Origin: an uncultured virus (IMG/VR IMGVR_UViG_3300045391_004154)
Taxonomy: Duplodnaviria; Heunggongvirae; Uroviricota; Caudoviricetes
Length of the DNA: 64,000 nucleotides
Virus record (IMG/VR): IMGVR_UViG_3300045391_004154
Direction: 5' to 3' (one strand)
Shown: positions 9,820-64,000 of the stretch, one piece after another
Position numbering within the stretch: position 1 is the stretch's first letter
Layout of the letters: the number at the start of each line of letters is the position of its first letter
Program-made: the position numbers and the translations under genes
Notes under the pieces: generated by a model
Databases searched by the model: none
The model's input: only the letters and a program-made list of their open reading frames with translations
What the model was told of the DNA's origin: nothing

Positions 9820-10133
9820 TGCAGCTGGTTCCTTTGGACGCAGTACCCTCGCAGCGGTTTACGATCAGCCTGTCAAACCAGGCCTGCCAGATCGAGCTGT
9901 ATCAAAAGGTGCAGGGCCTTTTCATGAACGTCTCGGTGAATGATGAACTCATCATCGGTGGCGTAATCTGTTTAAACCAGGTGCGGATCGTGCGCGACCT
10001 TTACCTGGGATTTTTGGGTGACTTCTTCTTCAACGATAGTCAGGGCTCAAGTGATCCCTACTATACCGGCCTGGGCTCGCGCTTTCAGCTGGTATATGTG
10101 CCGCCCGAGGAGCTACCCGAGGGCGTCGGCTAG
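9819..10133 (+). CDS. Baseplate plug-like protein
   Basis: YLGFLGDFFF.DSQG..DP.YTGLGSRF motif; translationally coupled. Confidence 0.65.
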   Translation: MQLVPLDAVPSQRFTISLSNQACQIELYQKVQGLFMNVSVNDELIIGGVICLNQVRIVRDLYLGFLGDFFFNDSQGSSDPYYTGLGSRFQLVYVPPEELPEGVG

Positions 10134-11062
10134 TGGCGTTTAAACAGAAGAAGCTCAACGTGAGCTTCGCTCTGGGTTCGGGTACCTTTGGTGATACCGG
10201 CAAGAACCAGTCCAAGCTGGAAGGTCTTCGGATGATTGCGGACATTCGTCGCGCCGGCGGCGTGGCAATGAGCACCGCGATGCTTGAGATTTATGGCATG
10301 ACATTGGATATGATGAACCAATTGTCAACGCTTGGCCTGGTGGCAACGACCGTGCGGCGCAATACCGTCCAGGTGGAAGCCGGCGATGCGGATGGAATGA
10401 CGGTTGTTTTTACGGGAACGATCATCAACGCCTATCCCGATTTCTCGTCGCTGCCGGACGTGGCCTTTCGCGTAGAAGCACATACGATGCTTATCGACGC
10501 GGTGGCGCCATCGCCGCCGCAGAGCTTTCCGCAGCCGACCAAGGCCAGCGACATTCTGGCCGGGATCGCGGGCCAGCTGGGCGTACCATTTGAAAATAAT
10601 GGGGTTACGACCATCCTGCCGCCATCCTACTTTTCCGGCGCGCTGCGACAGCAGGCGCTAGCCGTGGTAAAGGCCGCGGGCTGTCTTTGGAACGGGGTTG
10701 AGGATGGCACACTGGCCATCTGGAACCCCGGAGAATCTCGAGGAGGACAGGCACCGCTCGTCTCGAAGGATACGGGCATGATACTGTATCCCCAGTTTTC
10801 GTCCAACGGAATTACTCTGCGCACGACCTACAATCCCTCCATTGGGTTTGGCAAGAAGATCGTGGTGGAGAGCGCGCTCGGCGATGTACTTGCCAAGTCA
10901 CTGAATCAAACGGCAAAAGGTCGAGGCGTGAGCAAGGACAAGAAGCAGACCACCTGGGTGGTGTTTGATCTCAACCATCGGCTGGCGGCGCAGATGCCGC
11001 GAGGTCCATGGTTTTCATTTCTCCAGGCCGCTCCCTTGGGCCTGGGCCCGCAGGTGCCATAA
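10133..11062 (+). CDS. Baseplate hub (gp27-like)
   Basis: IYGMTLD.MN.L, FENNGV, TGMI.YP motifs; position. Confidence 0.7.
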   Translation: MAFKQKKLNVSFALGSGTFGDTGKNQSKLEGLRMIADIRRAGGVAMSTAMLEIYGMTLDMMNQLSTLGLVATTVRRNTVQVEAGDADGMTVVFTGTIINAYPDFSSLPDVAFRVEAHTMLIDAVAPSPPQSFPQPTKASDILAGIAGQLGVPFENNGVTTILPPSYFSGALRQQALAVVKAAGCLWNGVEDGTLAIWNPGESRGGQAPLVSKDTGMILYPQFSSNGITLRTTYNPSIGFGKKIVVESALGDVLAKSLNQTAKGRGVSKDKKQTTWVVFDLNHRLAAQMPRGPWFSFLQAAPLGLGPQVP

Positions 11063-18163: not shown

Positions 18164-18164
18164 C

Positions 18165-21100
18165 ATGACATACGCACAACGCCTTAAAGAACGTTTTAGC
18201 CGGAAGCGCGGTACGCTCCAGGCCAATCTGACGCGCCGCGCCATTTGCCTTGGAATCGGTATCAGCCTTCTGGTTGCCGGCGTTCCAGACAAGGCCGCGG
18301 CGTTCTTCTTTGCTGGCGGACAATCCAATGCAGCACCACCTCCAGGCGGAATCATCACTCAAATCGGACAGCTCAACACCACGACGATTAATGGACCAGC
18401 CGCAGCACTTACAAATGAAATTTGCCGCTTTGGCCATCCGTTTCCCGACGATGATGTAACGGGCGTTCCGGTTGGTAGGATTCCGCGCATCTATCCGCAG
18501 GGAAGCGGGACGCCGGTAGCCACTCAGGCGGTTGTGCCACTGCAGTATTGGCCTAGCGGTCGGTTGAAGCATGCGATGTTTGCTCATCTCGTGTCCTCGC
18601 TGCCGGGAAATGCCAGTCAGACTTCAACGGGTCTTGACCAGGGCAACAATACTACCTTGGTCTTTGATGTTGCAACCGTGGCTGGAAGTGAGGATCAGAC
18701 TGGAATCGCCGTATCGGTGTTCAATACCTATCTGAGTAACTCGTCCAATAACATGACGGGATCGTTCACCGATCTTGGGGGTACAGTTTGGTCTGCGTCT
18801 GCGTTCACGGCGTTTAGCGGTGCCACCAACGTAGCGAACTATGTTCTGGTTCCGACCTATTGGGGCAAGTTCTGCGGCAGTCCCTATGTGGACTGTTTCA
18901 AAGCCACGATGCCATTTGCCAATGGTGGTACCAACCACCGATCAGCAATCGCCGTCTTTTGGGCCTTCGTCTATCATAATGGCAGCACGATCACCGAGGT
19001 CGAATGGCATTGCCAGATCGAGAATGGCACTCTCGGTACTGCTCACCCGACCATTGGCGTCGGTAATGGCGATATCATTTATCGCTCTGCTGACTGGAGC
19101 ATTGGCGGTGTTGCGCGCTGGTTTCGCACGATGGAAACTCCCAACGCTACCTTAGAGGTGGGCCTGGGAAGCCTGGCGCCCACAATTTCAGGCCTCACTC
19201 CATCAGCCCGTTGGACGTCCTGTTCGCCGGTTGCCTGGATCAGCTCTGGCGCCTTTACGTTCGATCAGACACATCTCAGCCGTCCGATTTGCGTTGGCAC
19301 AACGGGTCAGGTCATGTATACCGTTGGTCGCGCCACGCAGTCACAAATCAACGTCACCGCTGGTGGTACCGGATTTACCACGCCGCCGACGATCAATTCG
19401 GGTGGTTCTGCCGTATTCCGTGCCATCATCGATCTGGCCAGCGGCGCCGTGGTGAAGATTATTTGCACCAAGTTCGGTACCGTGGGCACGCCAACCTTCA
19501 GTGGCGGCGGTGGTACCGGCCTCACGATGTCGGTAGCTGCCAATCAATCGGCCGTACAGTTCAACGCGCCGCAGGATGCCGGTGCCATCTGCACCGGACA
19601 AACCGGCACTGGCGGCTCTCTGTCTCTCAACGGCAAAAATTGCGCCAATGACGGTAGCGGCACCAAGGGCTATCCGCGCGCTTCGGGTGTTCCCCGCGTG
19701 TTCATGTGGTCACCCAATAACAATACCGGCTGCTCCATCACGATAAATGGTACGCGCACGAATGGCAGCACCACGCCTGGAACCTACACTGGTCCGGCTG
19801 CCGGTGCCTTCACCGACTGCGAAGATTGGGACGTCATTACTTCGATCACGCGCACCGGCACCTCCGACACCTTGTGCGTTGGCATCGGCGGTGTCCCCAG
19901 CGGCTCATTTGGCTGGGCGGGTTATGAAAACCAGACCAACAATCCGCCGTCATCTCCTGCGCGTGGTGTCACCTACGGCACCTATACGTCGGGCAACTGG
20001 AACATCATGGGCGGTGTGATTCCACGCGGCGCGGCGCCGGTAGAAATCATCTGGCAGAATCAGACCCCGCGGCATTACACCTCCTACAAGAATCAATATC
20101 TGCTCGATAGCAAGGTGCTGCTCAACTACGACCTGCCACAGTTCGCCGGCTCGGCTGGGTTGACTTCGGCCATTTCCAGCACCACGACTACCATCAACAC
20201 TTATGGAAAGTCGAGCAATGCGACGCTCTATCCCGACAGCGCCGACTACAATAAGCCCGCCTACCTGGGCGAGGGATCGAGTGGTTTAAACGAGTGGAAT
20301 TACGCGCTGCAGGAAAGCAAGTCTGGTGGCAATTCCGGCCTCGGCATGGACTCCGTGTTCGATCTATATTGGCTCGGCGGCGGCGGTTATGCAGCGTGGC
20401 GTGGAGTAATGACGGCCTGCAATCGCATCTTCAACATCCGGACCTACATCCGTGATGACAATACGGGCTTTGCAGCGGCAATGAGTGCCTATCCGAAGCT
20501 TGGCAGCGGTAGCTGGAATACCAACCCCGCAACGACTGGTGCCCCCTGTTTCTGGTTTGATCCGGGCCAGGCCTCTGGTCCCGGGTTCGGCGCCACCTTC
20601 GCCTGGGTCCAGCTGGATACCGCGCATTGCAACACGTCCTCGCGGCTCAGCTACGTTTTGACCTGCAATCCGGAAATTCTGGACGCCATGCAGCTGGAAG
20701 CAACAACGCGCTGGATGATGATAAGCAATGGTGGCGACGGTTACAACCGTAGCGCCGCGGGCTCAACGGGCGGAACCAACGCGCCATATCAGCAGCGCGT
20801 CACCGCCTGGTCGGGTCTAAAGTCGATGGGCATGCCCGTCATGCATCGACCCGACGATTCGGTGACCAGCATCTTCGCCGCGCTGTCAGTACACAAGACG
20901 ATGTTGGATAATTACTTCCACAACGGCTCCGTATCTAACGCTGGTCTAACCGACCTTTATGTCACCGGCCCCGATTATAATGGTGTCATGCCCGCGTCGA
21001 AGGGCAATGCGCACATGTGGGCCAACGCTCTCACTGGAGGCGCTGGATCGGCTACCGGCTACCAGACCGGCTTCAATTTGCTGGCCATGGGCAACTTGTA

Positions 21101-22076
21101 TGAGAACCAGGTCCTCAGCAGTTATGGCCTGCAATTCATGACGTGGGTTGCGGACCTGCCGATGCAATACTTCAACGCATCGTCCGATATCTGCTCGCCG
21201 TACATCGCCACCGTGCAATGGGTCTTAGGCTCGGACGTTTTCCGGTTCGCCAGTGGCAAGCAGCTTACTAGCCTGGCCGATCTCAATGATACGCTCATCT
21301 ACTGCTTCCCGGGAACGAGCATCGCGGGCTCACCCACGGCACTCAACCCCGAGCCGCCCGCAACATTGACTCCGACCGCGACGACCGGCAGCAGCGTTAC
21401 ATTCAACCTCAACGCCAACACGCTCTACACGCACGCCATCGGTGCCTACATTTCCGGGCAGGTGTTCAACGTCAGCTCCAACCAGACGGCAACGCCGTGG
21501 AACATGACGATCACCGGCCACCCGTACAACGACGGCGATCAAATCTACTTTGGCGCCGGCAGCGGCGGCGGCCGGCCCTCACAACCGCTGTCCTATGGCC
21601 GGACGATCTACTACGTCAAGAAGGTGGATGCGAACAACATTCAAGTCTTCACCGATGCCGGCCTCACCAATCAGGTCCAGTTCACGACTTCCGGCAGCAT
21701 GGTAGTAGCCGCGGGCCTGGCGCAGATTACGTCCGTGGGCGCTGGTGTCGCAACGCAGGCGTATAACTCCATCGTCTGCAACATCATCTCGCCGTTCCTC
21801 AACACCACGCCGATCACGTCCGGCAATTGGACAATGTCGATGCCGCCAGCGGGGCCGAACAACTCCGGTCACGCCTTCGCCTTCCCACAGGGCTTCACGT
21901 CGAACGATCAGCAGTTGGAGCTCAAGGCCTCGTTGGCCATCGCTTCGCTGGTGCCTGGAAACTACGCCGCGGCCAAGACGGCCTGGGATGCCTACGCCGC
22001 GCAGTGTGCAAACGACAATTGCGTCACGTCCAACTTCACCTTCTTCGCCAATCACGTGGTTAAGTATCGGTCATGA
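18165..22076 (+). CDS. ~1300-aa putative depolymerase / polysaccharide-lyase-like protein with Tat-like leader
   Basis: ATG two bases after the previous stop; FGHPF...PVATQ...WPSGRLKHA resembles the N-terminal domain of PcRGLX/YetA-type lyases; function inferred. Confidence 0.55.
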   Translation: MTYAQRLKERFSRKRGTLQANLTRRAICLGIGISLLVAGVPDKAAAFFFAGGQSNAAPPPGGIITQIGQLNTTTINGPAAALTNEICRFGHPFPDDDVTGVPVGRIPRIYPQGSGTPVATQAVVPLQYWPSGRLKHAMFAHLVSSLPGNASQTSTGLDQGNNTTLVFDVATVAGSEDQTGIAVSVFNTYLSNSSNNMTGSFTDLGGTVWSASAFTAFSGATNVANYVLVPTYWGKFCGSPYVDCFKATMPFANGGTNHRSAIAVFWAFVYHNGSTITEVEWHCQIENGTLGTAHPTIGVGNGDIIYRSADWSIGGVARWFRTMETPNATLEVGLGSLAPTISGLTPSARWTSCSPVAWISSGAFTFDQTHLSRPICVGTTGQVMYTVGRATQSQINVTAGGTGFTTPPTINSGGSAVFRAIIDLASGAVVKIICTKFGTVGTPTFSGGGGTGLTMSVAANQSAVQFNAPQDAGAICTGQTGTGGSLSLNGKNCANDGSGTKGYPRASGVPRVFMWSPNNNTGCSITINGTRTNGSTTPGTYTGPAAGAFTDCEDWDVITSITRTGTSDTLCVGIGGVPSGSFGWAGYENQTNNPPSSPARGVTYGTYTSGNWNIMGGVIPRGAAPVEIIWQNQTPRHYTSYKNQYLLDSKVLLNYDLPQFAGSAGLTSAISSTTTTINTYGKSSNATLYPDSADYNKPAYLGEGSSGLNEWNYALQESKSGGNSGLGMDSVFDLYWLGGGGYAAWRGVMTACNRIFNIRTYIRDDNTGFAAAMSAYPKLGSGSWNTNPATTGAPCFWFDPGQASGPGFGATFAWVQLDTAHCNTSSRLSYVLTCNPEILDAMQLEATTRWMMISNGGDGYNRSAAGSTGGTNAPYQQRVTAWSGLKSMGMPVMHRPDDSVTSIFAALSVHKTMLDNYFHNGSVSNAGLTDLYVTGPDYNGVMPASKGNAHMWANALTGGAGSATGYQTGFNLLAMGNLYENQVLSSYGLQFMTWVADLPMQYFNASSDICSPYIATVQWVLGSDVFRFASGKQLTSLADLNDTLIYCFPGTSIAGSPTALNPEPPATLTPTATTGSSVTFNLNANTLYTHAIGAYISGQVFNVSSNQTATPWNMTITGHPYNDGDQIYFGAGSGGGRPSQPLSYGRTIYYVKKVDANNIQVFTDAGLTNQVQFTTSGSMVVAAGLAQITSVGAGVATQAYNSIVCNIISPFLNTTPITSGNWTMSMPPAGPNNSGHAFAFPQGFTSNDQQLELKASLAIASLVPGNYAAAKTAWDAYAAQCANDNCVTSNFTFFANHVVKYRS

Positions 22077-26169: not shown

Positions 26170-26624
26170 GACGCGTCCTCCGGAAAGGGATTGCCGGCCG
26201 CCTCATAGCGCAGGCAGGCGCGCGTCACCCAATCCACCTGGGCCTGGTTCAACGAGAGCTGATAGCCGCCCCAGTGGGAATGATCGATGGCGATAGGTCC
26301 AATGGAGCGCGCCGAGCGCCAGAGCTCGGCGCCGGTCTCGGTGAACTTGGGCCTGCGCTTCTCCTCCCTTGCCTGCTTCTTCTCAAAGGCCACGTCCTCG
26401 TGGTCGGCGCGGCACACGTACCAGTCCACCTCCCAGCGCTTCACGATCTTCGGCGTAAGCTCCAGGCGCTGGCGCTGGTTGAGGAAGTCGGCGACGGCCT
26501 CCGCCTCCTCCTGGGTGAAGCGAACTCCCTGCACCGCGGCTGCGGGGTCAACCATCCAGGCCTTACAAACCTCGTGCCCGCATGGGCACTTCATGGCCCG
26601 ATATATTGTGCGATATTCACTCAT
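26166..26624 (-). CDS. Hypothetical protein
   Basis: GGAG-rich RBS; CPCGH..C motif. Confidence 0.55.
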   Translation of the reverse strand: MSEYRTIYRAMKCPCGHEVCKAWMVDPAAAVQGVRFTQEEAEAVADFLNQRQRLELTPKIVKRWEVDWYVCRADHEDVAFEKKQAREEKRRPKFTETGAELWRSARSIGPIAIDHSHWGGYQLSLNQAQVDWVTRACLRYEAAGNPFPEDAS

Positions 26625-27240
26625 CTTCGCCCTCCTCTCCTTCATAATCGCTATTCATCTGGCCGTGCTTGGCGACGGCGCAGCGCGGCGGCCCGAGCTC
26701 GTCCAGCCACTTCCGGGTGGTGCGGACCGTGTAGCCACACTCGGGGCACTCGCACTTGATGAGCCGGGTACCCTGCTTCTTGCCCGGACCCTTGAGCTTG
26801 CTCAGCGAGCCGGCCGGGTAGTCGCCATTCTTCTTGATGAACTCCTTGGCGAAGGCGTTCATGATCTCACCATTGACGGTGGAGGTCATCTTGCCTGTCA
26901 GGCCGATCGCCAGGGCGATGCGTTTAAACGCTCCCTTGTGGCCGTTCTTGTTGCCGTCCACGGCGTGGCAGAGCTCGTGTGCCAGGGTGCCGATGATGTC
27001 GGTCGCATCCTTGCTGGAGGGCGAGACGAAAATCTCGCAGTGCTTGTCGGAGCTTGACTCCGGCGCCCAGCACTGGCCGGCGATCTTCTCGGCGCGGCCG
27101 TAACCGAAGCCAATGGACACCCGCGTGCTGGCCGGCACCTCAAAGCCGTGCTTCTCAAAGTGCTTGCGCATCGCCGCCAGGCAGTTTTCCAGCCAGGTCT
27201 GGCGGAGCATGCTGGGTGATTTTCTGACCAGGTTGTTCAT
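26617..27240 (-). CDS. SprT-like zinc metalloprotease
   Basis: GQCW, LAHELCH (HExxH), GHKGAFK..A..IGL, C-terminal CPECGY. Confidence 0.75.
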   Translation of the reverse strand: MNNLVRKSPSMLRQTWLENCLAAMRKHFEKHGFEVPASTRVSIGFGYGRAEKIAGQCWAPESSSDKHCEIFVSPSSKDATDIIGTLAHELCHAVDGNKNGHKGAFKRIALAIGLTGKMTSTVNGEIMNAFAKEFIKKNGDYPAGSLSKLKGPGKKQGTRLIKCECPECGYTVRTTRKWLDELGPPRCAVAKHGQMNSDYEGEEGEDE

Positions 27241-29001: not shown

Positions 29002-29255
29002 TAGAGCTTCTCCTGCAGCTTGTTGCCGGTAATTTCCACAAGACCCAAACCGCCGGCCTCCCAAACGCGCCCGTTGTAGGAAATATGCGCGATCACCTTG
29101 CCCTCTCTAAGTACCACGCACATGCCAACATCGCGGCTGCCGAGGTCTCTATCTTCAATGAAGGCCAAGGTCTTTTTGGAGGCCTCCGCTAGGGTTTCCA
29201 CCTTGACCTTTTTGGTGGTCATGGCGCTGAAGTCTTCAAGATGAAGCGTAGCCAT
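29001..29255 (-). CDS. Hypothetical protein
   Basis: IAHISYNGRVW motif; ATG at 29255. Confidence 0.6.
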   Translation of the reverse strand: MATLHLEDFSAMTTKKVKVETLAEASKKTLAFIEDRDLGSRDVGMCVVLREGKVIAHISYNGRVWEAGGLGLVEITGNKLQEKL

Positions 29256-29551
29256 TAGATAGCTCCTACCCGCTTGAGGACGCGCAGCTGATACCCGATC
29301 GGGCAGCCGCCGAAGCGGTCCCAATTGAAGCCGCTGTAGTAGAGCTCGTTGACGCGCTCATCCATGATTTCTGCCTCCTCATCCGAGAAGGTCCGGACCC
29401 ATTCGCCGTTCACGGTGTTGCCGATGGAATTGGCGCTGTCCTCAAAATGATAGGCGAGGTTGCTCGCGACAAGCAGCTCAATGAAGCGACACGCGGCCGC
29501 GCGGGAGGTGATAGGCTGTTTAAACGATTCTTGAAAGGTGCTCGTGGTCAT
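29255..29551 (-). CDS. Hypothetical early protein
   Basis: AAGGAGG RBS; YHFED motif. Confidence 0.6.
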   Translation of the reverse strand: MTTSTFQESFKQPITSRAAACRFIELLVASNLAYHFEDSANSIGNTVNGEWVRTFSDEEAEIMDERVNELYYSGFNWDRFGGCPIGYQLRVLKRVGAI

Positions 29552-29562: not shown

Positions 29563-29859
29563 TTAGCGATTTACGATATGGAATTTACCGGCAGCAACCT
29601 GCGCCCTAACGGCGTCAAGCTTTGCGCGAATGGCGGGAGTGTCAAAGTCTACCGGCGCATTCCACAGGCCCTTGTGCGAGCGCGGGACGCAGAAGACGTG
29701 AATACCCACCATTTCGCGGGTCTGTTGATTGCGGGCCTGCGTGAAGACATAGAATGAACGATCGTCGCGGCCGGGGTAGATGTTGCCGATATAGCCGGTG
29801 GTCACACCGAGGTCGGCATAGTCCGCCTTGAGGGCGGCATCTTTATCAACGTAGGTCAT
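29563..29859 (-). CDS. Hypothetical early protein
   Basis: AAGGAGG RBS; first gene after the promoter. Confidence 0.6.
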   Translation of the reverse strand: MTYVDKDAALKADYADLGVTTGYIGNIYPGRDDRSFYVFTQARNQQTREMVGIHVFCVPRSHKGLWNAPVDFDTPAIRAKLDAVRAQVAAGKFHIVNR

Positions 29860-29920: not shown

Positions 29921-29968
29921 TACATGAAGATATTTTAGGTGCTGTTTAAACGCTTTAATTCCAGGAAC

Positions 29969-30322
29969 TTAGCTAAACTGGAAGCCTCGGGCCTCCCAAA
30001 AGGCCCGCAAATCCAGGTGCCCGCAGGCCTCCCGGCGCAAGAGGATTACGTGACTTACCCCGACCTTCGCGGCCGTCTTGCGCAGGGACCAGCCCGTGCG
30101 GCGCCGGGCCAGGGCGCAGAGCTCTCCCACCGTCTGCGGAGGATCGCGCCACCAGCGCGGCAGCTCAAATTCCACCTGGTCGGTTTCGTGCTTCCAATAG
30201 GTGGTGCGGCCCATGCCGAGACGCGCCGCGGCGGTGGTCTGCTTGAATCCTTCGCGCCGGCGCCACAGCCAGAGCTGCTCGCCAAAGGTCTGGTCGGTGA
30301 GGTCTTTGTTAGTGATGTTCAT
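29969..30322 (-). CDS. XRE-family regulator with two HTH units
   Basis: WRRREGFKQ..AAARLG..R.TY.K.E and ARRRTGWS....AAKVGVSH. Confidence 0.7.
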   Translation of the reverse strand: MNITNKDLTDQTFGEQLWLWRRREGFKQTTAAARLGMGRTTYWKHETDQVEFELPRWWRDPPQTVGELCALARRRTGWSLRKTAAKVGVSHVILLRREACGHLDLRAFWEARGFQFS

Positions 30323-39928: not shown

Positions 39929-40803
39929 CCGAACAACTCCCCGAGGAAGTGCGCCGACTGCAGCGACCATTGGCCGCGGGCGCAGGCCCAGAGGTGCGCG
40001 ATGAGGTCATCGCTGGTCTGGAACTCGGCGAGGTTGAGCGAGCGCATGACCTTTTCACTCGCCTCGTTTAAACACGCTTGTGCGCCGTCGCTGTCCACCT
40101 GATAGAGGTGCTGCGAGCCGGCGGTGAGGGTGAGGTAGCCGAGCTCCAGCTCGCGCAGCGCCGCGAGAGTGGTCTTCTGCTCGCCCAGCAATAGCTCAGC
40201 ATTTTGGGAGCTCAGGATTTTGCTGGCCTGGCCGCGCAGCTCCAGCGCCACGACGGCCGCCGCCATGGAGAAGTTGAAGATGTCGTAGACCCAGCCGGTC
40301 CAGATGTCGGAGCTGCGCATGGTGGCAACGCAGTGCAGCTTGCCGCCCCGGATGAGGAACTGCCAGGAGAGCGTGCAGGGCGTGTCCTTGCTCGGCCGCG
40401 GCTGCTCGCGCCAGATGTTCACGACGGCCTGACGAGAGGCGGGATCGCGCACGAGGGTATCCACCACGAAGGAGAGCTGGTCCACGAACTTGGGCCCGTA
40501 GGCCCCGAAGTAGCGCCGGCCGTCATCGCTCAAATCCTTGATGGCCTTGGCGTAGGGCGCGATGGTTGAGACGCGGTTGTCGCCGGACAAAATCCAGGCG
40601 GCCTCGGCGCACATGAACTTGTAGCCGAGCTTTCGGCCCGGAGAGAGTACCACAGGGTTGCTCATGTCGATTGTGGTCTGATAGGCGACCAGCTCCCGGT
40701 TCGCCCGGCCGCGCCAGGTGGCGCCAGCGGACATGGGAGAAACACTCACGCCACTGTGGAGCAAATCCATGAGGGCGCGTTTCCAAACCAGGGTGGTGCT
40801 CAT
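39925..40803 (-). CDS. Thymidylate synthase-fold enzyme, probably dCMP-specific (methyl- or hydroxymethyltransferase)
   Basis: GAYG, SRQAV, KDTPCT, QF.IR, MRSSD.W.G..YD.F, GSQHLY; ATG at 40803. Confidence 0.8.
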   Translation of the reverse strand: MSTTLVWKRALMDLLHSGVSVSPMSAGATWRGRANRELVAYQTTIDMSNPVVLSPGRKLGYKFMCAEAAWILSGDNRVSTIAPYAKAIKDLSDDGRRYFGAYGPKFVDQLSFVVDTLVRDPASRQAVVNIWREQPRPSKDTPCTLSWQFLIRGGKLHCVATMRSSDIWTGWVYDIFNFSMAAAVVALELRGQASKILSSQNAELLLGEQKTTLAALRELELGYLTLTAGSQHLYQVDSDGAQACLNEASEKVMRSLNLAEFQTSDDLIAHLWACARGQWSLQSAHFLGELFG

Positions 40804-41811: not shown

Positions 41812-41967
41812 TCAATCTCCCTGCGATAGCTTGCGTTTAAACAGCATCGCCTTGCCGCTCGGGTAGAGCGCGCAAAACTCCCAGGTGGGGTCGAGGTGCT
41901 TCCAGAACACGTCGTCGGGCCCGGGAATAACCACGAACTCCGCCACCAGATATTCCCAGCGGTCCAT
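41812..41967 (-). CDS. Small protein (DUF4177-like)
   Basis: 52 codons: MDRWEY...WEF...LFKR; below the ORF-track cutoff. Confidence 0.45.
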   Translation of the reverse strand: MDRWEYLVAEFVVIPGPDDVFWKHLDPTWEFCALYPSGKAMLFKRKLSQGD

Positions 41968-43582: not shown

Positions 43583-45080
43583 CGGCTTCCTCCTCCATCT
43601 GCGCCTCAATGGACTTCGGCACGGCGAACGGCAGGAGCTCGGCCGGGAATTTCCGTATCTCCGGCACGGCATCCTTGCCGCGCAACAGCTTGAGGTTCTT
43701 GCGCTGCGTCGCCACATCGTTCTTGCTCACCAGGCTCTCCGGCCAGTGATGCTTGATGATAGCCACCAGCTGGTCGGCGGTGAAGCGGTCCAGGGATATC
43801 AGCTCCTGGAGGTAGCGCATGCGGCCCTGCTTGCGATCGGGCTCGGGTATCGGCGCGCCCACGAGCAGGTTCGCCACGGGCACCTCCACCCGCCGCTTGC
43901 CACCCACCCCCTGACTCTTGGCCCGCGGCGCGCCCTCAAAGCGGGCGGCCGGAATGTGCTGGACGAGCTCGCGAGCAGGGGGGAGCTCGTGAACGTAGGA
44001 ATGACCCTCCGCGGGAGGCTCGCGCAATTCCACGTGGAAGACGCCAGGCCGCTCGGGCTTGGTCCCGGTGCGAATGGCGTTGGCCACCACGCCGCCCAGC
44101 CAGGAGCCACACGGCGGGCAGACGCCGCGCGCGATGAGAGAGAAGGCCGCGTTGGGAGTGGTGGCGGCGAACTCGTAGTCCGGCGGAAAGCCGCAGAGGG
44201 CTGCGCCCTCATTGACGGTAACAAAGCGCTTTTCCGTCGGATGAATGAGGGCGTAGCCCACGAAGGCATCGGCCGGTCGGTCAACCGGCAGGCGGCGATG
44301 GCCGAAGCTGGGCCGGCCGATAATCTGGCCCTGCTCGCCGCGCTTCCACTGGTCCTGCGGCACGAAGCGCTCCCAATAGTCGCGCACCTTCTCGCCCGGC
44401 TCCATTTCGAAATAGGTATTCTGCAGCCACTTGGCAACGAGCGGTTCGATCTTCACCGTCCAGTCCAGCCTGGTGGGCGTAACCTCCTGGAGGCATTCCA
44501 GCGCGGTCTTGGGTGGCGCCCAGTTGGGCAGCGGCCAGCCGATGTTGACCTTGGAGCAAACCATGAAGAAGCGCTTGCGGCTCTGTGGCACACCGTGCCA
44601 CTTGGTGTCATGGAGCACGTAATAGACGTTGTACCCGAGCTCCAGGGCCTTCTTCTCGAGCTCGCGCAGCACCTCCTGGCCCTTGCCATAGGCCTGCGTC
44701 ACGCTTTCGGTGGCCCAGACGGTCGGGCGCAGCTTCTCCAGCAGGCCGAAGTGCCGCACGGTACACTGCACGCGCGGATCGGTCCGCCACTTGTCGGCGC
44801 CGCGCGTCTTGGTGTAGCCGGCCACCGACCAGGCGGCGCAGGGTGGATTGCCGTAGATGAAATCGAGTTCTTGGAACTCGGGTTCATCTACGGGCCACTC
44901 TGAATTCGGATAATGAATGGGCAGGTCCGGGTAGTTCTTCTGCACGGTTGCCACCCCGTAGTCACTCTCCTCGAAATGGGCGATGACGTCGAAGTGGTCG
45001 CGCACCCCGATGGAGAAGCCACCGGCGAAGACGTTGGCGGCGAGGGCGCGGAGCTTGGGCTGAGTTTTCTTTTTGGTCAC
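43566..45080 (-). CDS. C5-cytosine DNA methyltransferase-fold enzyme with divergent motifs I, VI and X and an extra C-terminal domain
   Basis: FAGGFSIG, GNPPC, ESV, GVPQSRKR, RF.TV.E.A.L.GFP, IARGVCPP. Confidence 0.85.
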   Translation of the reverse strand: MTKKKTQPKLRALAANVFAGGFSIGVRDHFDVIAHFEESDYGVATVQKNYPDLPIHYPNSEWPVDEPEFQELDFIYGNPPCAAWSVAGYTKTRGADKWRTDPRVQCTVRHFGLLEKLRPTVWATESVTQAYGKGQEVLRELEKKALELGYNVYYVLHDTKWHGVPQSRKRFFMVCSKVNIGWPLPNWAPPKTALECLQEVTPTRLDWTVKIEPLVAKWLQNTYFEMEPGEKVRDYWERFVPQDQWKRGEQGQIIGRPSFGHRRLPVDRPADAFVGYALIHPTEKRFVTVNEGAALCGFPPDYEFAATTPNAAFSLIARGVCPPCGSWLGGVVANAIRTGTKPERPGVFHVELREPPAEGHSYVHELPPARELVQHIPAARFEGAPRAKSQGVGGKRRVEVPVANLLVGAPIPEPDRKQGRMRYLQELISLDRFTADQLVAIIKHHWPESLVSKNDVATQRKNLKLLRGKDAVPEIRKFPAELLPFAVPKSIEAQMEEEADEETA

Positions 45081-45501: not shown

Positions 45502-45723
45502 TTATCTTTTGGCGCGGCACTTCGGAACTGGGCCATACCAGACAAACATGTTGAGGTCGTTCCAGCTATCATCAGAGCCGAACTCGTAGATTTTATCGCG
45601 GCTCTTATCACCGTTGGTGTAGACCAGGAGCGGGACAATATCCGGGCTATGCGTTTGACGGCCGTAATAAACGCCATCTTCGGTCGGTGCCGGATTGATT
45701 TTGCGTCGCAGGACTCGGCTCAT
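45502..45723 (-). CDS. Small hypothetical protein
   Basis: PTEDG.YY...WYGP.P motif. Confidence 0.5.
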   Translation of the reverse strand: MSRVLRRKINPAPTEDGVYYGRQTHSPDIVPLLVYTNGDKSRDKIYEFGSDDSWNDLNMFVWYGPVPKCRAKR

Positions 45724-46421
45724 TTCTTCTTGCCCTTCTTCTTGGGCTTTTCAGCCGGCGCTGGCTCCGCCTTCACTACGGGCTTGGCGTCCTTCTCGGG
45801 CCAGGGCGGCACGTCGCCGCGGCCGAAGCGCGCCTGGCGGTCCTCCACGCTCATCTCCATGAGGATATTGTAGTTGTACTTGACGTCGGACTTCTTGGTG
45901 GTGCGGCCGGGCCAATTGCTCAGCACGATCTCCACCAGGCGCTCGGGCGTGTAGCTGCCCGTCATCCAGAGGCGCTGCATAAGCTTGCCGGAGCCCTCGT
46001 TCTGACCGGGCTTCTCGCCCTCGCCGGGAACGTAGACCTTCTCCACCTTGGCCGCGTTTAAACGCTCTGCGGCCGCGGCGCGCTGGGCCTTCTGCTCGGG
46101 GCTCAGCTCGGGCTCGGGCACGGGAAAGCCGAGCAGCTTCATGGCGAGCCGGTAGGTCGCCGAGTTGCGATCGTACTCCTCCGCCGTTCGCGCCAGCCGC
46201 ACCGCCACCTCCTGGTAGTTCCAGGCCGGCAGCAGGAGCTCCACGGGCTTGAGCCGATCCCAGATGGCGATGGGGCTCTTATCATAGGAGCAGTCGGCCG
46301 GTGACAAGAGCGTCACCCACTTTTGGCCGCGCTCCACCACGAGCAGCCGGCGCTTGCCGGCGCCGAAGGTTGGGATTTCATCCTCCAGGTGGACTTCCCA
46401 ATAGGTGATGTCGTCGCTCAT
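45720..46421 (-). CDS. Early protein carrying the shared ~50-aa domain
   Basis: GGAGG RBS; ...YTPERLVEIVLSNWPGRTTKKSDV...; basic tail. Confidence 0.65.
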   Translation of the reverse strand: MSDDITYWEVHLEDEIPTFGAGKRRLLVVERGQKWVTLLSPADCSYDKSPIAIWDRLKPVELLLPAWNYQEVAVRLARTAEEYDRNSATYRLAMKLLGFPVPEPELSPEQKAQRAAAAERLNAAKVEKVYVPGEGEKPGQNEGSGKLMQRLWMTGSYTPERLVEIVLSNWPGRTTKKSDVKYNYNILMEMSVEDRQARFGRGDVPPWPEKDAKPVVKAEPAPAEKPKKKGKKK

Positions 46422-57574: not shown

Positions 57575-59203
57575 TCATATCCACTTCCCCGAATGCTCGT
57601 TCAAGATCAGGTCGCTCAGCTTGCGGCGCGCCCGGTGCGAGCGCACGATGTCCTCGTCCTTGGTCTCCGCGGCGATGAGGTCGATGATGCCGGTGGCGAT
57701 TGTCCTCAATCCCGTTTGCGCTCTGACTTCGGATTGAAGCCTCTGGTTCAATCCGAATTCAGAGGAGTAGTACATCATCCACTCGGCCGCTGATACATTC
57801 ACAGCTCTGCCGGCAGAACGAGTCTTCGCCACGAATGTATCAGCGTCCCCGGCCTGGAACGCGGCCTTGTTGCGGTGCTTGGTCTCGTCGTCCACCTGGC
57901 CGTCGTAGCGGACGGGCCGGCGGCCTAGTTGGCGACTGAGTTCAAGAACGTCGTCGATATCCTGGTTGAAGCGGCACCAGATGATTGCCGGTTGGGGAGC
58001 GGCCTTGAACTCGGCGGCAAGGCCAAGAAGCTTTGGGTTTCGATCCACCGGAACAATGCGCTGAAGGGGGATTTGGGTTTCAATAACTCCAAGACCGTCA
58101 CAAGCGGCGCAGCCGTCGCCCTCGCCGGAGCATAGCTCGCACACCTCGGCAGCCTTCGCGTTGGGCCAAAATCCGCTGGTAAGCTGCTGAAGGCGCAGGT
58201 AGCGAGTGAGAACGTTGGCGACCGTAACCTTGCCGAGGTGCTGGAGCTCCAGCTCGTACTCGGTGGACAGCTTCTCGTATGCGGCTCGCTGCTCATCGGT
58301 CAACTCCACGTAGCGCTTCTGATAGATGGGATCGGGGACATTGGCAAAGACCTCCTTGAAGCGCACTCTATAAGTGTGCGGCGCAATGAGGCGCTGCAGC
58401 TTGTCGAGGTTGCGATAGATGGGCTGGCCCTGGTCGTCCTTCTTGATCTGTTTAAACGCCTTGGCATTCTTGCCGTACTGCATCACCTGCTGCTCGGAAT
58501 ATTCGGCGCGGAAGGCGGTGGCGTTGGAGCCGAGAATGTGCTCGCTGAGGAAGCGATACTGGGCGAACAGGTCAAAGGGACCTTCACCCGTGGGCGTGCC
58601 GTCCAGCACGCGCCGCATCTCCGCCTTCTTGCTCATCCAGTGCAGCGACTTGGTGCGCGCCGCGTCGGGAGACTTCATGAGCAGCGTGCCCTCGTCGCCG
58701 ACCAGCAGGGTCTTGCGCTTCACCAGGAAGTGGTTGAGCATGTAATCGCAGAAGGCGGGCGTGTTGGTGCTTTCGCCGTTGATGCAGATGATGGCCAGGC
58801 CCTCGTAGGTGAGCAGGTCCTTGAGGAGCTCGGTATGGGTGAGGTTCTTGACCTTGAAGCGGCCGGGACGGTTCGGATCGCGCTTCTTGGTCTTGCCCGA
58901 TTTGGTCGGGTCCCACAGCAGGGTGCGCCGCTCGATGAAGGCCGGCAGCATGAGGGCGTTGATCTCGTCCAGCCAGTTGCGCGGCGCGCCGCTCGGCATG
59001 GCCGCGATCACCAGGCCATTGATGCGGCGGTTGAGGAAGTTGAGGCCCGCGGTATCCAGCACCACCTGGGTCTTGCCGGTGCGCTGCTCCATGGAGAGGT
59101 AGAAGCCCGTGCGATCGTGCGATCGGGCGAAGCCCTCCACCTGGTGGTCCCAGCGGGTGCGATCGGGCAATGGCGCTGACGCCAGATATTCGTCCACGTT
59201 CAC
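57575..59203 (-). CDS. SNF2-family SF2 helicase
   Basis: MEQRTGKT, GDEG, LDGTP, DLFAQY.FL, LRLQQ, IIWCRF, QSE.R. Confidence 0.85.
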   Translation of the reverse strand: MNVDEYLASAPLPDRTRWDHQVEGFARSHDRTGFYLSMEQRTGKTQVVLDTAGLNFLNRRINGLVIAAMPSGAPRNWLDEINALMLPAFIERRTLLWDPTKSGKTKKRDPNRPGRFKVKNLTHTELLKDLLTYEGLAIICINGESTNTPAFCDYMLNHFLVKRKTLLVGDEGTLLMKSPDAARTKSLHWMSKKAEMRRVLDGTPTGEGPFDLFAQYRFLSEHILGSNATAFRAEYSEQQVMQYGKNAKAFKQIKKDDQGQPIYRNLDKLQRLIAPHTYRVRFKEVFANVPDPIYQKRYVELTDEQRAAYEKLSTEYELELQHLGKVTVANVLTRYLRLQQLTSGFWPNAKAAEVCELCSGEGDGCAACDGLGVIETQIPLQRIVPVDRNPKLLGLAAEFKAAPQPAIIWCRFNQDIDDVLELSRQLGRRPVRYDGQVDDETKHRNKAAFQAGDADTFVAKTRSAGRAVNVSAAEWMMYYSSEFGLNQRLQSEVRAQTGLRTIATGIIDLIAAETKDEDIVRSHRARRKLSDLILNEHSGKWI

Positions 59204-59997: not shown

Positions 59998-60026
59998 TTG
60001 ACCTCTATACTAAGAAATACTAACTT
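59998..60026 (+). promoter_or_regulatory. Sigma70-like rightward promoter in the AT-rich divergence region
   Basis: TTGACC-17 nt-TAACTT upstream of the NusG-like gene. Confidence 0.5.
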
Positions 60027-60174
60027 GTATTTTTTAGGTTTGTCTTCAGTTTAAAATCTCCGTGCGCGTATACGCGGGCGCGCGGGAGGACGCGGTGGCC
60101 TGGGGAGAAGATCAGCAGAGACGAAGTTTTAAGGATTTGTGGAGAAGGATGCGGGGACATCTGGGAGGCGATGC

Positions 60175-60681
60175 ATGAAGCGATGGTACGTGGCGAGAAC
60201 CCAACCGGGTCTCGGGATCATCGCGGAGCGTGAGCTGCAAAAGAGCTACGGCGATAGGCCGGCATTTCAAACGCTGCTGATAATGGATGGAAAGGGGCGA
60301 TCGGTATTCGGGCCATATATCTTCATTGAGATTGATCTTGACGAGGATTATTGGGAGCCAATCAATTCAGTGCGAGGAGTGAGCCGGCTTCTGCCCATCG
60401 GCACTGCCACCCCCCTGCCACTTCCAGAAACGTTCATGCGGGAATTGCGAAAGCGGCTGGGTAGCGGGGATTTTGATGAGCGGGCCGCGGCGGAATTGGT
60501 CTATGCCTACTCGCCGCAGGAGCCGGCGCTGGTGACTTCGGGACCGTGGGAGGGTCATGTTGGCAATTTTGTTCGACGAAAGAAAGGATTTATAAACCTT
60601 TCTCTGGTACTGTTCAACCGTCCATTCGAAATTCCAGTTCCGGCCCACCAGGTCCGACCCGCGTCGCCCAAAGCAGCTTGA
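60175..60681 (+). CDS. NusG/RfaH-family transcription antiterminator
   Basis: GGAGG RBS; WYVART.PG, F..YIFI, W..INS.RGV.RL, KOW motif VTSGPWEG. Confidence 0.8.
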   Translation: MKRWYVARTQPGLGIIAERELQKSYGDRPAFQTLLIMDGKGRSVFGPYIFIEIDLDEDYWEPINSVRGVSRLLPIGTATPLPLPETFMRELRKRLGSGDFDERAAAELVYAYSPQEPALVTSGPWEGHVGNFVRRKKGFINLSLVLFNRPFEIPVPAHQVRPASPKAA

Positions 60682-60734
60682 GGCTGAGTGCGGCAGCTAT
60701 GACCTCTTGATTTAAACCAAGAACAATTCAAACG

Positions 60735-61223: not shown

Positions 61224-62961
61224 GCCGCCCGTAGTTCTGGGCAAGAGCAGTTGGCCGCCCGATTACATGGCGGTGCACAAATGGCGCCAGCAACAGCTGA
61301 TGATCTTTCGAAAAGATCAGAAGATGCTTGAGGCAGCGTTGGCCTACTATGCGATGCCCGAGCACGCAGCCGAGTTCATCTGCCACTGGGTTGACACCTA
61401 CGACCCGCGCAATGCCGGCTCCAACCTGCCGACGCGCCTGCCACTGATTCTGTTTGAGAAGCAGGCCGAGCTCGTCGATTTTCTCAATAGTCTGGTCAAG
61501 AACCAGCAGAATGGGCTCATCGACAAGAGCCGCGACATGGGTGCAACCTGGCTCTGCTGTGCCTACAGCGTGTGGGCCTGGTTGTTCATTCCCGGCGTTT
61601 CGATCGGCTGGGGCTCGCGCAAGCAGGAGCTGGTCGACAAGCTCGGCGACATGGACAGCATCTTTGAGAAGCTGCGCCAACTCATTCGCGGCTTGCCGCG
61701 CGAGTTCTTGCCGCATGGCTTTGCCTACGCGCGCCATCTGAGCTTTGAGCGGATATTGAATCCCGAGACCAACGCCAGCATCACAGGCGAGGTCGGCGAT
61801 AACATCGGTCGTGGCGGCCGCAAATCGTTTTACTTCAAGGATGAGAGCGCCCACTATGAGCACCCCGAGCTCATCGAGGCGGCACTGGGCGACAACACCC
61901 GCGTCCAGGTAGACATCTCAACGCCGAATGGCATTGGCACCGTCTACGATCGCAAGAAGGAAAGCGCGATCGAGTGGAAGCCGGGTGACAAGATGAAGCC
62001 CGGTTTCACGCAGATGCTCGTGATGGACTGGTCACATCATCCGGCCAAGACGCAGGCCTGGTATGATGAGCGGCAGGCCAAGATGAAGCGCGAAGGCCTC
62101 ATCCACATCTTTCGCCAGGAAGTGGACCGCAACCCGGCGGCCTCGCTCGTCGGCGTCATCATCCCGCCCGAGTGGGTCAACGCCGCGGTGGACGCCCATG
62201 TAAAGCTGGGCTTCGGCGCGACTGGCAACCTGGTGGGAGCACTGGACGTGGCCGATGAGGGTGGTGATCTGAACGCACTGACTCTGCGCAAGGGCGTGAT
62301 ATTGCAGATGGCGGAGGACTTCGCCGGTGATGAGGAGGGCGTGGGCAAGAGCGCGCGCTATGCCATCGGCGAGCTGCACCAGCGTGGCTGCTTCAACCTG
62401 CAATATGATTGCTGCGGCATTGGCGCCGGCGTGAAGACCGAGGCCGCCAGGCTGCGCAAGGAGAAGAAGCTGCCGCATGGTTTCCAGGTCATCGCCTGGG
62501 ATGCGGGCCAGAGCGTGCTGCGGCCCAAGGAGCGCGTGGTGCCGGGTGACAAGACCTCACCACTGAATGAGGACTTCTACAAGAATTTGAAGGCGCAGGG
62601 CTGGTGGGAGTTGCGCCGGCGGTTCGAGAAGACCTTCCAGATGGTCACCGAGCCGTATATCTACCAGTACAAATTCAACGAGCTCATTTCACTGCCGAGC
62701 ACGTTGCCGCGGCTGCCGCAGCTCAAGCGTGAGCTCTCGCAGCCCACGATCAAATATGATGGCGCCATGAGAATCATGGTGGACAAGAAACCAGACGGCG
62801 CGAAGTCGCCCAACCTTGGAGATAGCGTAATGATGGATTACTTCCCGCTCCAGGGCGCGATGGTCGTCACCGACCAGCACCTGCGCAGCATGGGCCAGCC
62901 GACTCCGATGAAGATCAGAGGCGGCCAGTCCCAGCAAGATCAGGTATCGCAGTTCCGGTGA
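61207..62961 (+). CDS. terL: Terminase large subunit
   Basis: KSRDMGATW, GRGGR, FKDESA, ISTPNG, LDVADEG.D, SPNL.DS. Confidence 0.9.
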   Translation: MKLQYKPPVVLGKSSWPPDYMAVHKWRQQQLMIFRKDQKMLEAALAYYAMPEHAAEFICHWVDTYDPRNAGSNLPTRLPLILFEKQAELVDFLNSLVKNQQNGLIDKSRDMGATWLCCAYSVWAWLFIPGVSIGWGSRKQELVDKLGDMDSIFEKLRQLIRGLPREFLPHGFAYARHLSFERILNPETNASITGEVGDNIGRGGRKSFYFKDESAHYEHPELIEAALGDNTRVQVDISTPNGIGTVYDRKKESAIEWKPGDKMKPGFTQMLVMDWSHHPAKTQAWYDERQAKMKREGLIHIFRQEVDRNPAASLVGVIIPPEWVNAAVDAHVKLGFGATGNLVGALDVADEGGDLNALTLRKGVILQMAEDFAGDEEGVGKSARYAIGELHQRGCFNLQYDCCGIGAGVKTEAARLRKEKKLPHGFQVIAWDAGQSVLRPKERVVPGDKTSPLNEDFYKNLKAQGWWELRRRFEKTFQMVTEPYIYQYKFNELISLPSTLPRLPQLKRELSQPTIKYDGAMRIMVDKKPDGAKSPNLGDSVMMDYFPLQGAMVVTDQHLRSMGQPTPMKIRGGQSQQDQVSQFR

Positions 62962-64000
62962 AGCCCCACAAGCCCGGCGAATATACCCGGCGCAAGCGCC
63001 GGCAACCCGCGCCCGCGAAGAAGCGGCCGGCGATCGCCAAGCATCCAGTGAAGGCCAAGGCCAAGCCGGGACCGCGCCTGCGCGAGACCGGCCTGGGAGC
63101 CGACCAGCTTTCGCAGTTCACCGGCATTCAGCGCGAGCTGAAGAAGCAGGGCCGCAAGGAGCTGAAGGGCAAGCGCCTATTCCGCATCACCGATCAGATG
63201 CTGATGAACGCCAAGGGCAGCACGGCCGGCAGCGTGGAGCTGGCGCGGCGCATCTTTGCGGCCGCGAAGCCATTGCCGACGGTGATCCCAAAGGACAACA
63301 CCAAGGCCCTGCTGGCCATGGACGAGAACATTTCGCTGTTCACCGCCTGGGCCGCGCAGAGCATCTACAACGGTGCGTTCCAGCAGGGCGTGACCTTCCT
63401 GGGCTATCCATATCTCGCCGAGCTCGCGCAGCGCGGCGAGTATCGGCGTGTGAGCGAAGTTATCGCCACCGAGATGACGCGCAAGTGGATCGAGGTCAAG
63501 GCCCACAGCGCGCAGAAGCTCCAGGTAACGCTGGCCGAGACGGAGGGCCAGGACACCGAGGAGGAGGACCTCAACGCCGGCGGGCCCGAGGAGGCGGACG
63601 AGCTCGAGGGCAATGATCCCAGCTTCCAGTACGATGACGAGACGGCCAACGACAAGGCGCCAGTGGCCTGGGCCGACACCGAGCAGCAGGCCGAGCAGAT
63701 GGCCGCGAGCCTGCAGGCTGAGCCGGCGCAGCAGCAGAACGGCGAGGCGCCCACCGATCCCAACGCCAACATCGAGGCGGACGGCGAGGCGGACATTGAC
63801 GTGGACGGCGCGGTGGCGGAGAGCCAGCCATCAGCACCGGACAAGACGGCCAAGATCAAGGAGCTGAACGAGGAGCTGGAACGTTTAAACGTCCAGGCCA
63901 TCTTCAAGAGCATCGCCGAGCAGGATGGCTTCTTTGGCCGCGCCCATCTCTACATCGACACGGGCCACACCGACAACCTGCCCGAGCTCAAGATGCCCAT
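62958..64000 (+). CDS. Portal protein (DUF1073-type), 3' truncated
   Basis: GTG overlapping the TerL stop, open to the window end; FLGYPYLAELAQR.EYR, EMTRKWI, DGFFGR. Confidence 0.8.
   Translation, partial: MKPHKPGEYTRRKRRQPAPAKKRPAIAKHPVKAKAKPGPRLRETGLGADQLSQFTGIQRELKKQGRKELKGKRLFRITDQMLMNAKGSTAGSVELARRIFAAAKPLPTVIPKDNTKALLAMDENISLFTAWAAQSIYNGAFQQGVTFLGYPYLAELAQRGEYRRVSEVIATEMTRKWIEVKAHSAQKLQVTLAETEGQDTEEEDLNAGGPEEADELEGNDPSFQYDDETANDKAPVAWADTEQQAEQMAASLQAEPAQQQNGEAPTDPNANIEADGEADIDVDGAVAESQPSAPDKTAKIKELNEELERLNVQAIFKSIAEQDGFFGRAHLYIDTGHTDNLPELKMP

Follow-up and report, generated by a model that had tools for sequence, protein, structure and literature searches.

An exact palindrome enriched in phages that carry a SprT-like zincin gene, and its candidate reader

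Introduction

Short exact words can be over-represented through selection on the DNA itself, as for Chi (with RecBCD), the uptake sequences, KOPS (with FtsK), and HIP1. These are words of host chromosomes, and most of them are asymmetric and strand-biased. The present work deals with a word in phage DNA, the exact eight-letter palindrome GTTTAAAC, in a 64-kb stretch from an uncultured virus of the Caudoviricetes (IMG/VR record IMGVR_UViG_3300045391_004154), and with the SprT-like gene of the same phage. This stretch, called the window below, is taken from a phage genome of about 74 kb, about 10 kb of which lies outside it.

In its logic, the nearest described system is the stoperator array of Cluster A mycobacteriophages (PMC6550527). 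There, repressors such as those of L5 and Bxb1 have many dispersed short cognate words, mostly outside promoters, and from one related phage to another the stoperator consensus changes together with its reader protein. On the protein side, the protease SPRTN depends on DNA, in that two DNA-binding interfaces have to engage the right DNA context before it becomes active (PMC7534798). ArdC of plasmid R388 is described as an antirestriction protein with a single-stranded-DNA-binding domain and a metalloprotease domain (PMC7213743).

In the phage considered here, the SprT-like gene is the only gene that tracks GTTTAAAC. We regard it as rather probable, from sequence comparison, that the SprT-like protein encoded by the phage, a predicted Spartan/Wss1-type zincin carrying a four-ligand zinc ribbon, has GTTTAAAC as its cognate DNA word. 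A full-text literature search returned no paper linking GTTTAAAC to phage over-representation, palindromes, or SprT, and SprT-like proteins of phages appeared in it as annotation mentions only.

Enrichment of the word in the window

An earlier note on this DNA had listed eleven exact copies of GTTTAAAC, with a GC content of about 61% and about 0.3 copies expected. All eleven are present, the GC content is 60.6%, and dinucleotide-preserving shuffles of the window give an expectation of 0.29 copies, with a maximum of two and none of 100 shuffles reaching 11. Markov models of orders 0 to 4 expect between 0.16 and 1.17 copies, and under the order-3 model GTTTAAAC is the top-ranked 8-mer of the window. 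The codon-preserving shuffle, which the note had proposed as a check together with the Markov test, points the same way: synonymous shuffling within genes yields a mean of 2.26 copies (maximum 5) and codon-order shuffling a mean of 2.13 (maximum 4), and none of the 400 shuffles of either type comes near 11. As the two intergenic sites stay fixed in both procedures, the coding expectation is only about 0.1–0.3, compared with nine sites observed. Only 28 amino-acid contexts of the window could encode the word, and nine of them actually spell it.

The sites are written with codons that are otherwise rare, as the note had remarked. Five genic copies are framed NGT-TTA-AAC and four NNG-TTT-AAA-CNN, in genes of both orientations; TTA occurs 29 times across all listed genes, five of these within GTTTAAAC, and AAA accounts for 124 of the 926 lysine codons. 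The extension to YGTTTAAACR (nine of the 11 sites) and the rarity of TTTAAA elsewhere (11 of its 15 occurrences fall within the word) were also borne out. The note's count of ten sites inside open reading frames (ORFs) holds in part: by the gene model of this analysis nine sites are genic and two (29944 and 41835) intergenic, but the latter lies in an open stop-to-stop frame, which accounts for the tenth. No clear positional bias is seen along the window, with four sites in the structural modules and seven in the replication and nucleotide module; three of the 11 lie within 35 nt of a start codon, which was not judged significant.

The enrichment is confined to the exact word, since one-mismatch variants are scarce (three in the window versus about 7.6 implied by a shuffle mean of 7.91 for zero to one mismatch). 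Graded sites around GTTTAAAC were accordingly rejected, and the one-letter variant GTTTACAC, discussed below, has no copy in the window. GTTTAAAC is, thus, exact and selected against codon usage, and sometimes against protein sequence.

Palindrome depletion, the pattern of restriction-site avoidance, does not apply to GTTTAAAC, which is enriched 29-fold and stands out all the more as the phage avoids other palindromes. GATC-centred hexamers are strongly avoided in the window (GGATCC 0 versus 14.1 expected, AGATCT 0 versus 10.7, TGATCA 4 versus 20.0), and so are ACCGGT (4 versus 19.2) and CACGTG (5 versus 17.2); this depletion looks like avoidance of host restriction sites. Another frequent word, CGAGCTCG, with 18 copies in the window versus 2.6–5.4 expected and 11 versus 3.2 in the relative G002 described below, is taken as an ordinary high-GC codon-pair effect.

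Co-occurrence of word and gene across phages

More than 516 IMG/VR stretches carry a homologue of the SprT-like gene, and 79 of them were sampled. They hold 402 GTTTAAAC sites versus 13.2 expected, whereas a control palindrome, CAAATTTG, occurs 16 times. At least three sites are found in 57 of the 79 stretches, which range from 36 to 72% GC, and 14 stretches have none. The gene itself is a hot spot, with 114 of the 402 sites inside it or in its short flanks; leaving it out, 288 sites remain in 932 kb.

A sample independent of the gene was drawn through the DNA polymerase (78 IMG/VR records). The 74 records lacking the gene have 14 sites in 3.06 Mb, with at most three per record. Two records carry a SprT-like gene with the cysteine ribbon: G048, a phage unrelated to that of the window, with 25 sites in 83.7 kb, and G094, with six in 70 kb, whose gene had been predicted from its site count ahead of the gene search. 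The other two are G111, a 6.7-kb fragment in which the C-terminus of the homologue is unaligned (0 sites), and G025, whose homologue has no ribbon (two sites in 94 kb). Ribbon-less homologues are also found in Bordetella phage FP1 and Pseudomonas phage Epa5, neither of which has a single site, and none of GTTTAAAC, GTTTACAC, or the further variant GTGTACAC is enriched in these three genomes. All 54 stretches with a KCxCxxCG[YF] ribbon, for comparison, have at least two GTTTAAAC sites, and 51 of them at least three.

Cultured phages behave in the same manner. Among those with the ribbon, Dinoroseobacter phage R5C has 10 sites versus 0.02 expected in 50 of its 78 kb, and Pseudanabaena phage Pan1 has 10 versus 0.01 in 50 of its 72 kb; neither a homologue nor a site is present in PaMx11 and Pam3. 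In R5C and Pan1 the gaps between sites (about 3–10 kb and 1.9–7.1 kb, respectively) are mostly near 5 kb, and the sites are more evenly spread than in the window or in G048. As the two phages are related, this even spacing counts as one observation.

The close relative G002 and the eleven sites

G002 is a complete 74.5-kb genome with terminal repeats, collinear with the window at about 76–87% DNA identity. It has three GTTTAAAC sites and no SprT-like homologue, compared with 11 sites in 64 kb and the gene in the window. Ten window ORFs have no match in G002: nine are small and functionally unassigned, two of these being doubtful calls, and the tenth is the SprT-like gene, which forms a clean indel between conserved neighbours. 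Of these ten, only the SprT-like one is shared with G048, and the other nine have no homologue in any of the 79 SprT-positive stretches. Both methyltransferases, the helix-turn-helix (HTH) and winged-helix genes, the HNH gene, and the terminase are all kept in G002.

The earlier note had proposed looking for conservation in related phages. Such conservation is limited to the site at 63883..63890 in the portal gene (62958–63998, plus strand), the only window site also present in G002; at the other alignable sites G002 differs at two to four of the eight bases, in some cases by purely synonymous differences and in others with a change of protein sequence. In the structural genes on the plus strand, the site at 9970..9977 in a virion gene (9819–10133) is read TGT-TTA-AAC (Cys-Leu-Asn) and has GCCGCAAC as its G002 counterpart. 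The one at 10138..10145 occupies codons 2–5 of the baseplate hub gene (10133–11062) as GCG-TTT-AAA-CAG, where G002 has GCC-TTT-AAG-CAG and hence the same Ala-Phe-Lys-Gln with purely synonymous differences. The site at 20284..20291, read GGT-TTA-AAC, lies in a large tail-fibre-like gene (18165–22076) over which no G002 alignment covers the site.

The site at 26922..26929 is within the SprT-like gene, at the Phe-Lys codons of its conserved GHKGAFK motif (GCG-TTT-AAA-CGC). Further along, 29518..29525 is near the 5' end of a small minus-strand gene (29255–29551) with no counterpart in G002, and 29944..29951 is intergenic, between an HTH gene (29969–30322) and another gene (29563–29859), both on the minus strand. 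The remaining sites are in, or just upstream of, minus-strand genes. Those at 40066..40073 (TGT-TTA-AAC, in a thymidylate-synthase-like gene, 39925–41019) and 46056..46063 (CGT-TTA-AAC, in a gene at 45720–46421) correspond to GTTAAGGC and CTTCAAGC in G002. The intergenic site at 41835..41842 is 25 nt upstream of the TTG start (41810) of a P-loop kinase-like gene, and that at 58450..58457, read GCG-TTT-AAA-CAG in an SNF2 helicase gene (57575–59203), differs from G002 at four of eight bases and in protein sequence.

Two of the three G002 sites are private to it and absent from the window. The common ancestor of the two phages may, therefore, already have had the system. Five more distant relatives (G003, G004, G005, G014, and G015; 47–49% polymerase identity) have neither sites nor a SprT-like gene, which favours a gain in the lineage of the window.

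The one-letter variant

The 14 carrier stretches with zero GTTTAAAC are mostly not exceptions, as GTTTACAC is enriched in 13 of them, reaching 18 copies versus 0.10 expected in L086 and 15 in L030. Actinophages Percival (14 versus 0.09 expected) and MaGuCo (15 versus 0.34) are likewise enriched, and the polymerase-sampled records (79 scored) have at most four copies each, like the control word. GTGTACAC occurs three times in each of two related Burkholderia loci versus 0.07–0.09 expected, a weak signal. The words fit the series GT[T/G]T-A[A/C]AC.

In a wider set of 128 carrier stretches, 70 are enriched for GTTTAAAC, 21 for GTTTACAC, two for GTGTACAC, one for both of the first two words, and 34 for none. 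Clustering their proteins at 60% identity gives 48 clusters, of which 20 go with GTTTAAAC, seven with GTTTACAC (one including the GTGTACAC pair), one is mixed, and 20 show no enrichment. A quick maximum-likelihood tree was built with 126 of the 128 proteins, leaving out one shorter than 150 aa and one with a garbled C-terminus. One of its two main branches holds 19 of the 21 GTTTACAC carriers, and the GTTTACAC label changes six times on the tree versus a shuffled mean of 19.7, none of 500 shuffles being as low, although near-copies inflate this clustering. No single ribbon residue was found to separate the two classes: the position following the conserved lysine is mostly Cys among GTTTAAAC carriers and mostly Val among GTTTACAC carriers, but each class has its exceptions.

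The asymmetric GTTTACAC is found on both strands in Percival (8 and 6 copies) and L086 (10 and 8), and on one strand only in L030 (15 and 0). Many L030 copies share a recurring context, with GTCGMC directly before GTTTACAC and CTAG or GCTAAG after it. This context resembles a regulatory element, and the word may double as part of a promoter or operator in the GTTTACAC class.

The word in bacterial chromosomes

In 38 bacterial genomes with a SprT-like gene, the sequence up to 10 kb on either side of the gene contains 56 GTTTAAAC sites in 644 kb, and the remaining 202 Mb contain 599. This corresponds to 0.87 versus 0.03 per 10 kb, a contrast of about 29-fold. The total (655) is below that of the control word (1393). 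Eleven of the 38 prophage-type loci are individually significant, and in one actinobacterial genome 16 of 21 sites fall in the 40 kb adjoining the gene. GTTTAAAC is not enriched in host chromosomes and is confined to phage and prophage DNA; the host-wide repeat that the earlier note had named as a possible refutation is not what is observed in these genomes.

The SprT-like protein

The candidate reader of GTTTAAAC, P0001, is a protein of 207 aa encoded at 26617..27240 on the minus strand. Its HExxH motif spans residues 88–92 (26965–26979), the third histidine is residue 101, and a putative zinc ribbon, KCECPECGY...C, covers approximately residues 162–190 (26671–26757) at the C-terminus. The Pfam SprT-like family PF10263 matches residues 23–115 with 33.1 bits (cut-off 25.6, E 5.5e-8). 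Among 35 aligned homologues H88, E89, H92, H101, C165, and C187 are invariant and C168 is kept in at least 90%, the C-terminal pattern being CxxC...C..[H/C].

The AlphaFold model has a predicted local distance difference test score (pLDDT) of 90.8, with the ribbon confidently modelled. VIA structural alignments, which span residues 8–140, give as the top match the SprT domain of human SPRTN (6mdw; Z 8.7, root-mean-square deviation 3.9, 103 aligned residues), followed by 6mdx (Z 8.6) and Wss1 (5xbv, Z 8.2); Foldseek also matches the human SPRTN SprT domain (E 3.8e-3, 210 columns). Minimal zincins score alike (abylysin Z 8.7, selecase Z 8.0), so that the resemblance to SPRTN is to be read at the level of the zincin core only. 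When solved structures were searched by sequence with the profile of the family, all matches were at chance level (E > 0.6), and PADLOC gave no match.

The gene is itself a preferred place for the word: GTTTAAAC lies inside it in 53 of 82 homologous genes, and exactly at the conserved Phe-Lys codons in 40 of the 74 that have a GHxxxF motif.

Proposed role and competing explanations

Since the word tracks the gene across unrelated phages, changes with the protein branch, and is absent where the ribbon is lost, the SprT-like protein is probably its reader, with the zinc ribbon as the part that would read it, perhaps as duplex by a dimer or perhaps as one strand by a monomer. A DNA-dependent protease may then be restricted to phage DNA by the sites, which would serve as its landing or activating pads. 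This idea is suggested by analogy with eukaryotic SPRTN, which is switched on only by the right DNA context. By the same analogy, P0001 could be a protease that is activated by DNA and acts on proteins bound to the DNA of the phage. Its putative substrates would be proteins on or attacking that DNA, such as host defence or nucleoid proteins, roadblocks, or crosslinks, and the site in the gene's own Phe-Lys codons may feed back on SprT-like expression. A bolder and quite tentative extension is that such proteins form a widespread class of DNA-dependent proteases addressed by sequence, so far undescribed. Many phage families would seed their genomes with GTTTAAAC, with GTTTACAC in a sister branch, and possibly with GTGTACAC in a third; the word would dock and activate the zincin only on phage DNA, where it would destroy host proteins that bind, track, or attack this DNA. 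Word and ribbon would co-evolve as a private address code, lost in ribbon-less forms or rewritten by one letter.

The earlier note had seen in the word a selected address read by a phage factor, and this general idea is upheld by the failure of codon shuffles to produce the count, the unenriched hosts, and the tracking of a single phage gene. The specific candidates that it put forward are not supported. It is hardly credible that composition, codon usage, protein sequence, or a -1 frameshift-type heptamer has produced the count. Five coding sites are framed T_TTA_AAC, which fits the general slippery pattern X_XXY_YYZ, but the other frame is used at four sites and a further two lie outside genes; slippage does not need the flanking G and C, which are present on 11 of 15 TTTAAA all the same; and composition and codons are refuted by the shuffles, none of which exceeds five copies. 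A phage DNA methyltransferase, with the word as its self-marking target or raised by a repair bias linked to a methylase, a mechanism proposed for the palindrome HIP1 of cyanobacteria, is very unlikely. The window does encode a C5-methyltransferase (43566–45080) and a Dam-like protein (38929–39552), and enrichment of the exact word only resembles enzyme-type recognition. Both enzymes, however, are 81–88% conserved in G002 with its three sites, and neither has a homologue in G048 with its 25, so that the N6-methyltransferase that the note had named is not supported. Moreover, host genomes are not enriched, and the differences of two to four bases per site from G002, including amino-acid changes, are not what a single-base repair bias would give. 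An operator or stoperator-like array for a transcription regulator (an HTH or winged-helix protein) is improbable too, if slightly less so. Two sites are intergenic and two more lie at most 30 nt from a start codon, the L030 variant word stands in repeated promoter-like contexts, all on one strand, and dispersed repressor sites within genes are reported for Cluster A mycobacteriophages (PMC6550527). Nevertheless, nine of the 11 sites are genic, in both frames and both gene orientations; the exact word alone is enriched, whereas operators are typically graded; neither a repressor nor an integrase was found in the window; and the HTH gene at 29969–30322 and both winged-helix genes are kept in site-poor G002, which argues against the HTH proteins as readers. 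A packaging or recombination signal, also raised by the note, finds no support.

Several observations weigh against the SprT-like protein as reader. All links between protein and word are correlations, drawn from sequence. At the threshold of this analysis 20 of the 48 protein clusters show no enrichment, and the SprT-positive sample is redundant, with 34 of the 128 proteins in one cluster. L057 has an intact ribbon and neither GTTTAAAC nor GTTTACAC, 13 of the 38 bacterial prophage-type loci have zero GTTTAAAC (including Ralstonia loci with intact ribbons), and the enrichment in E. coli phage ep3 is weak (four sites versus 0.9 expected). G002 has its three sites in the absence of the gene, and one of the two private ones uses rare codons, GGT-TTA-AAC where the window has GGC-CTC-AAC, so that, in G002, the gene is not required for the word to persist or to be selected. 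As for the protein, the modelled match to SPRTN is tied by minimal zincins (Z 8.7 versus 8.7), and the ribbon does not match the SprT zinc-ribbon family PF17283 in Pfam; the ESM Atlas gives a lead to PF17283 clusters, at a score of only 0.78. Finally, the hybrid GTTTACAC, exclusive in its class, is not easily reconciled with a symmetric homodimer in which each subunit would read an identical half-site.

Part of this evidence (the G002 sites, the unenriched clusters, and the correlative nature of the link) would also suit another reader of the word, be it a host machine that is conserved or a phage protein not yet recognised, with the SprT-like gene travelling along or acting downstream, for instance on a word-binding protein. 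Such an arrangement seems to us unlikely, though less so than the operator array. The carriers span 36–72% GC and hosts from E. coli to cyanobacteria and actinobacteria, so that only a universal host machine could read the word in all of them, yet the chromosomes of hosts show no enrichment. An accompanying phage protein is disfavoured by the nine other window-specific ORFs, which have no homologues in the SprT-positive stretches, and the word variant follows the SprT-like tree, with ribbon loss accompanying word loss. The SprT-like protein, thus, remains the reader that we favour.

Other features of the window

The window belongs to a contractile-tail phage, with sheath, baseplate, tape measure, portal, and terminase genes. 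A long leftward gene block is devoted to replication (family-A DNA polymerase, archaeo-eukaryotic primase (AEP)-type primase, two UvrD-type helicases, and the SNF2 helicase) and to nucleotide metabolism (ThyX-like, thymidylate-synthase-like, dCMP deaminase, P-loop kinase, and MazG), and also contains the C5-methyltransferase, the Dam-like protein, and a NusG-like protein. Contigs with the protein cluster of the polymerase reach 73,738 bp. There is no close relative among named phages, whose polymerases stay below 40% identity and among which megablast with 20 kb of the window gave no close match. Closer relatives are represented by polymerase proteins of 82%, 78%, and 70% identity. IMG/VR record G001 is the same phage (100% identity across window positions 8001–54272) and, therefore, adds no independent evidence. 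The search for integrase and repressor families covered the window genes, about 10 kb of the genome lying outside.

Between 36779 and 43244 on the minus strand, DUF3310/nucleotide-kinase-like, ThyX-like, dCMP deaminase, thymidylate-synthase-like, P-loop kinase-like, MazG, and phosphoesterase genes are clustered. We take this cluster to be reminiscent of gene sets in phages that replace thymidine with hypermodified bases; if it makes such bases, the T's of the word in the virion may not be plain thymine. A NusG-like gene (60139–60681, plus strand; PF02357, E 1.4e-9) just upstream of the terminase genes is a possible phage antiterminator for late transcription.

Another word, CCCCCTG, forms facing pairs (CCCCCTG, 60–750 bp, CAGGGGG) every 2–5 kb over the genome, mostly within genes. 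Its plus-strand copies are at 1229, 5752, 8934, 13831, 16774, 20542, 22206, 24998, 27928, 30488, 35338, 39536, 43907, 48784, 53269, 56087, and 60411, and its minus-strand copies at 1975, 6177, 9255, 14460, 17226, 22451, 25090, 28141, 30550, 33358, 35864, 39624, 43976, 49004, 53439, 56472, and 59928. For 15 of the 17 plus-strand copies a minus-strand copy follows at most 800 bp downstream, which none of 5000 random placements reached. The same pairing is seen in G002 (15 of 21; 0 of 5000 random placements) and is, therefore, independent of the SprT-like gene, which G002 lacks.

Comparison with known systems

If the proposed role is right, P0001 would be the first protease of the Spartan/Wss1 family to show sequence specificity and the word a new form of viral self-marking, in which a written address recruits an enzyme instead of a chemical modification. 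It would also provide a function for a gene annotated in hundreds of cultured phages; the 164 records listed include 'SprT-like protease', 'transcription elongation protein', and 'antirestriction protein' among their annotations. The one-letter switch between protein branches constitutes a natural specificity experiment, and GTTTAAAC, a PmeI restriction site, is a simple sequence signature for spotting such phages and prophages.

With SPRTN and Wss1, the phage protein shares the zincin core (HExxH and a third histidine), the Pfam SprT-like family, the structural matches to 6mdw/6mdx and 5xbv, and a zinc-binding module, putative in the phage protein, placed after the protease core. It differs in that SPRTN reads DNA structure and not sequence, and in that its own protease activity is predicted; no sequence word, genome-wide site array, or phage role has been described for SPRTN. 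ArdC, compared by description only, is also a mobile-element protein joining a DNA-binding module to a metalloprotease domain, and the ribbon-less homologue of Bordetella phage CN1 is annotated 'antirestriction protein'. The metalloprotease domain is presumably C-terminal in ArdC, and N-terminal in the phage protein, and we know of no sequence word for ArdC.

As for the words, GTTTAAAC is confined to phage and prophage DNA and rare in hosts, unlike Chi, the uptake sequences, KOPS, and HIP1. From HIP1 it further differs by its lack of over-representation across the chromosomes of the 38 gene-carrying bacteria and by its independence from methyltransferases, which are kept in G002 with three sites and absent from G048 with 25. 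The likeness to stoperators lies in the many dispersed sites within genes, here nine of 11. Stoperators, as described in PMC6550527, are asymmetric, oriented with transcription, and read by repressors in temperate phages, whereas the word described here is an exact palindrome, found in both gene orientations and both frames, associated with a protease-type zincin, and shared across phage families and host phyla.

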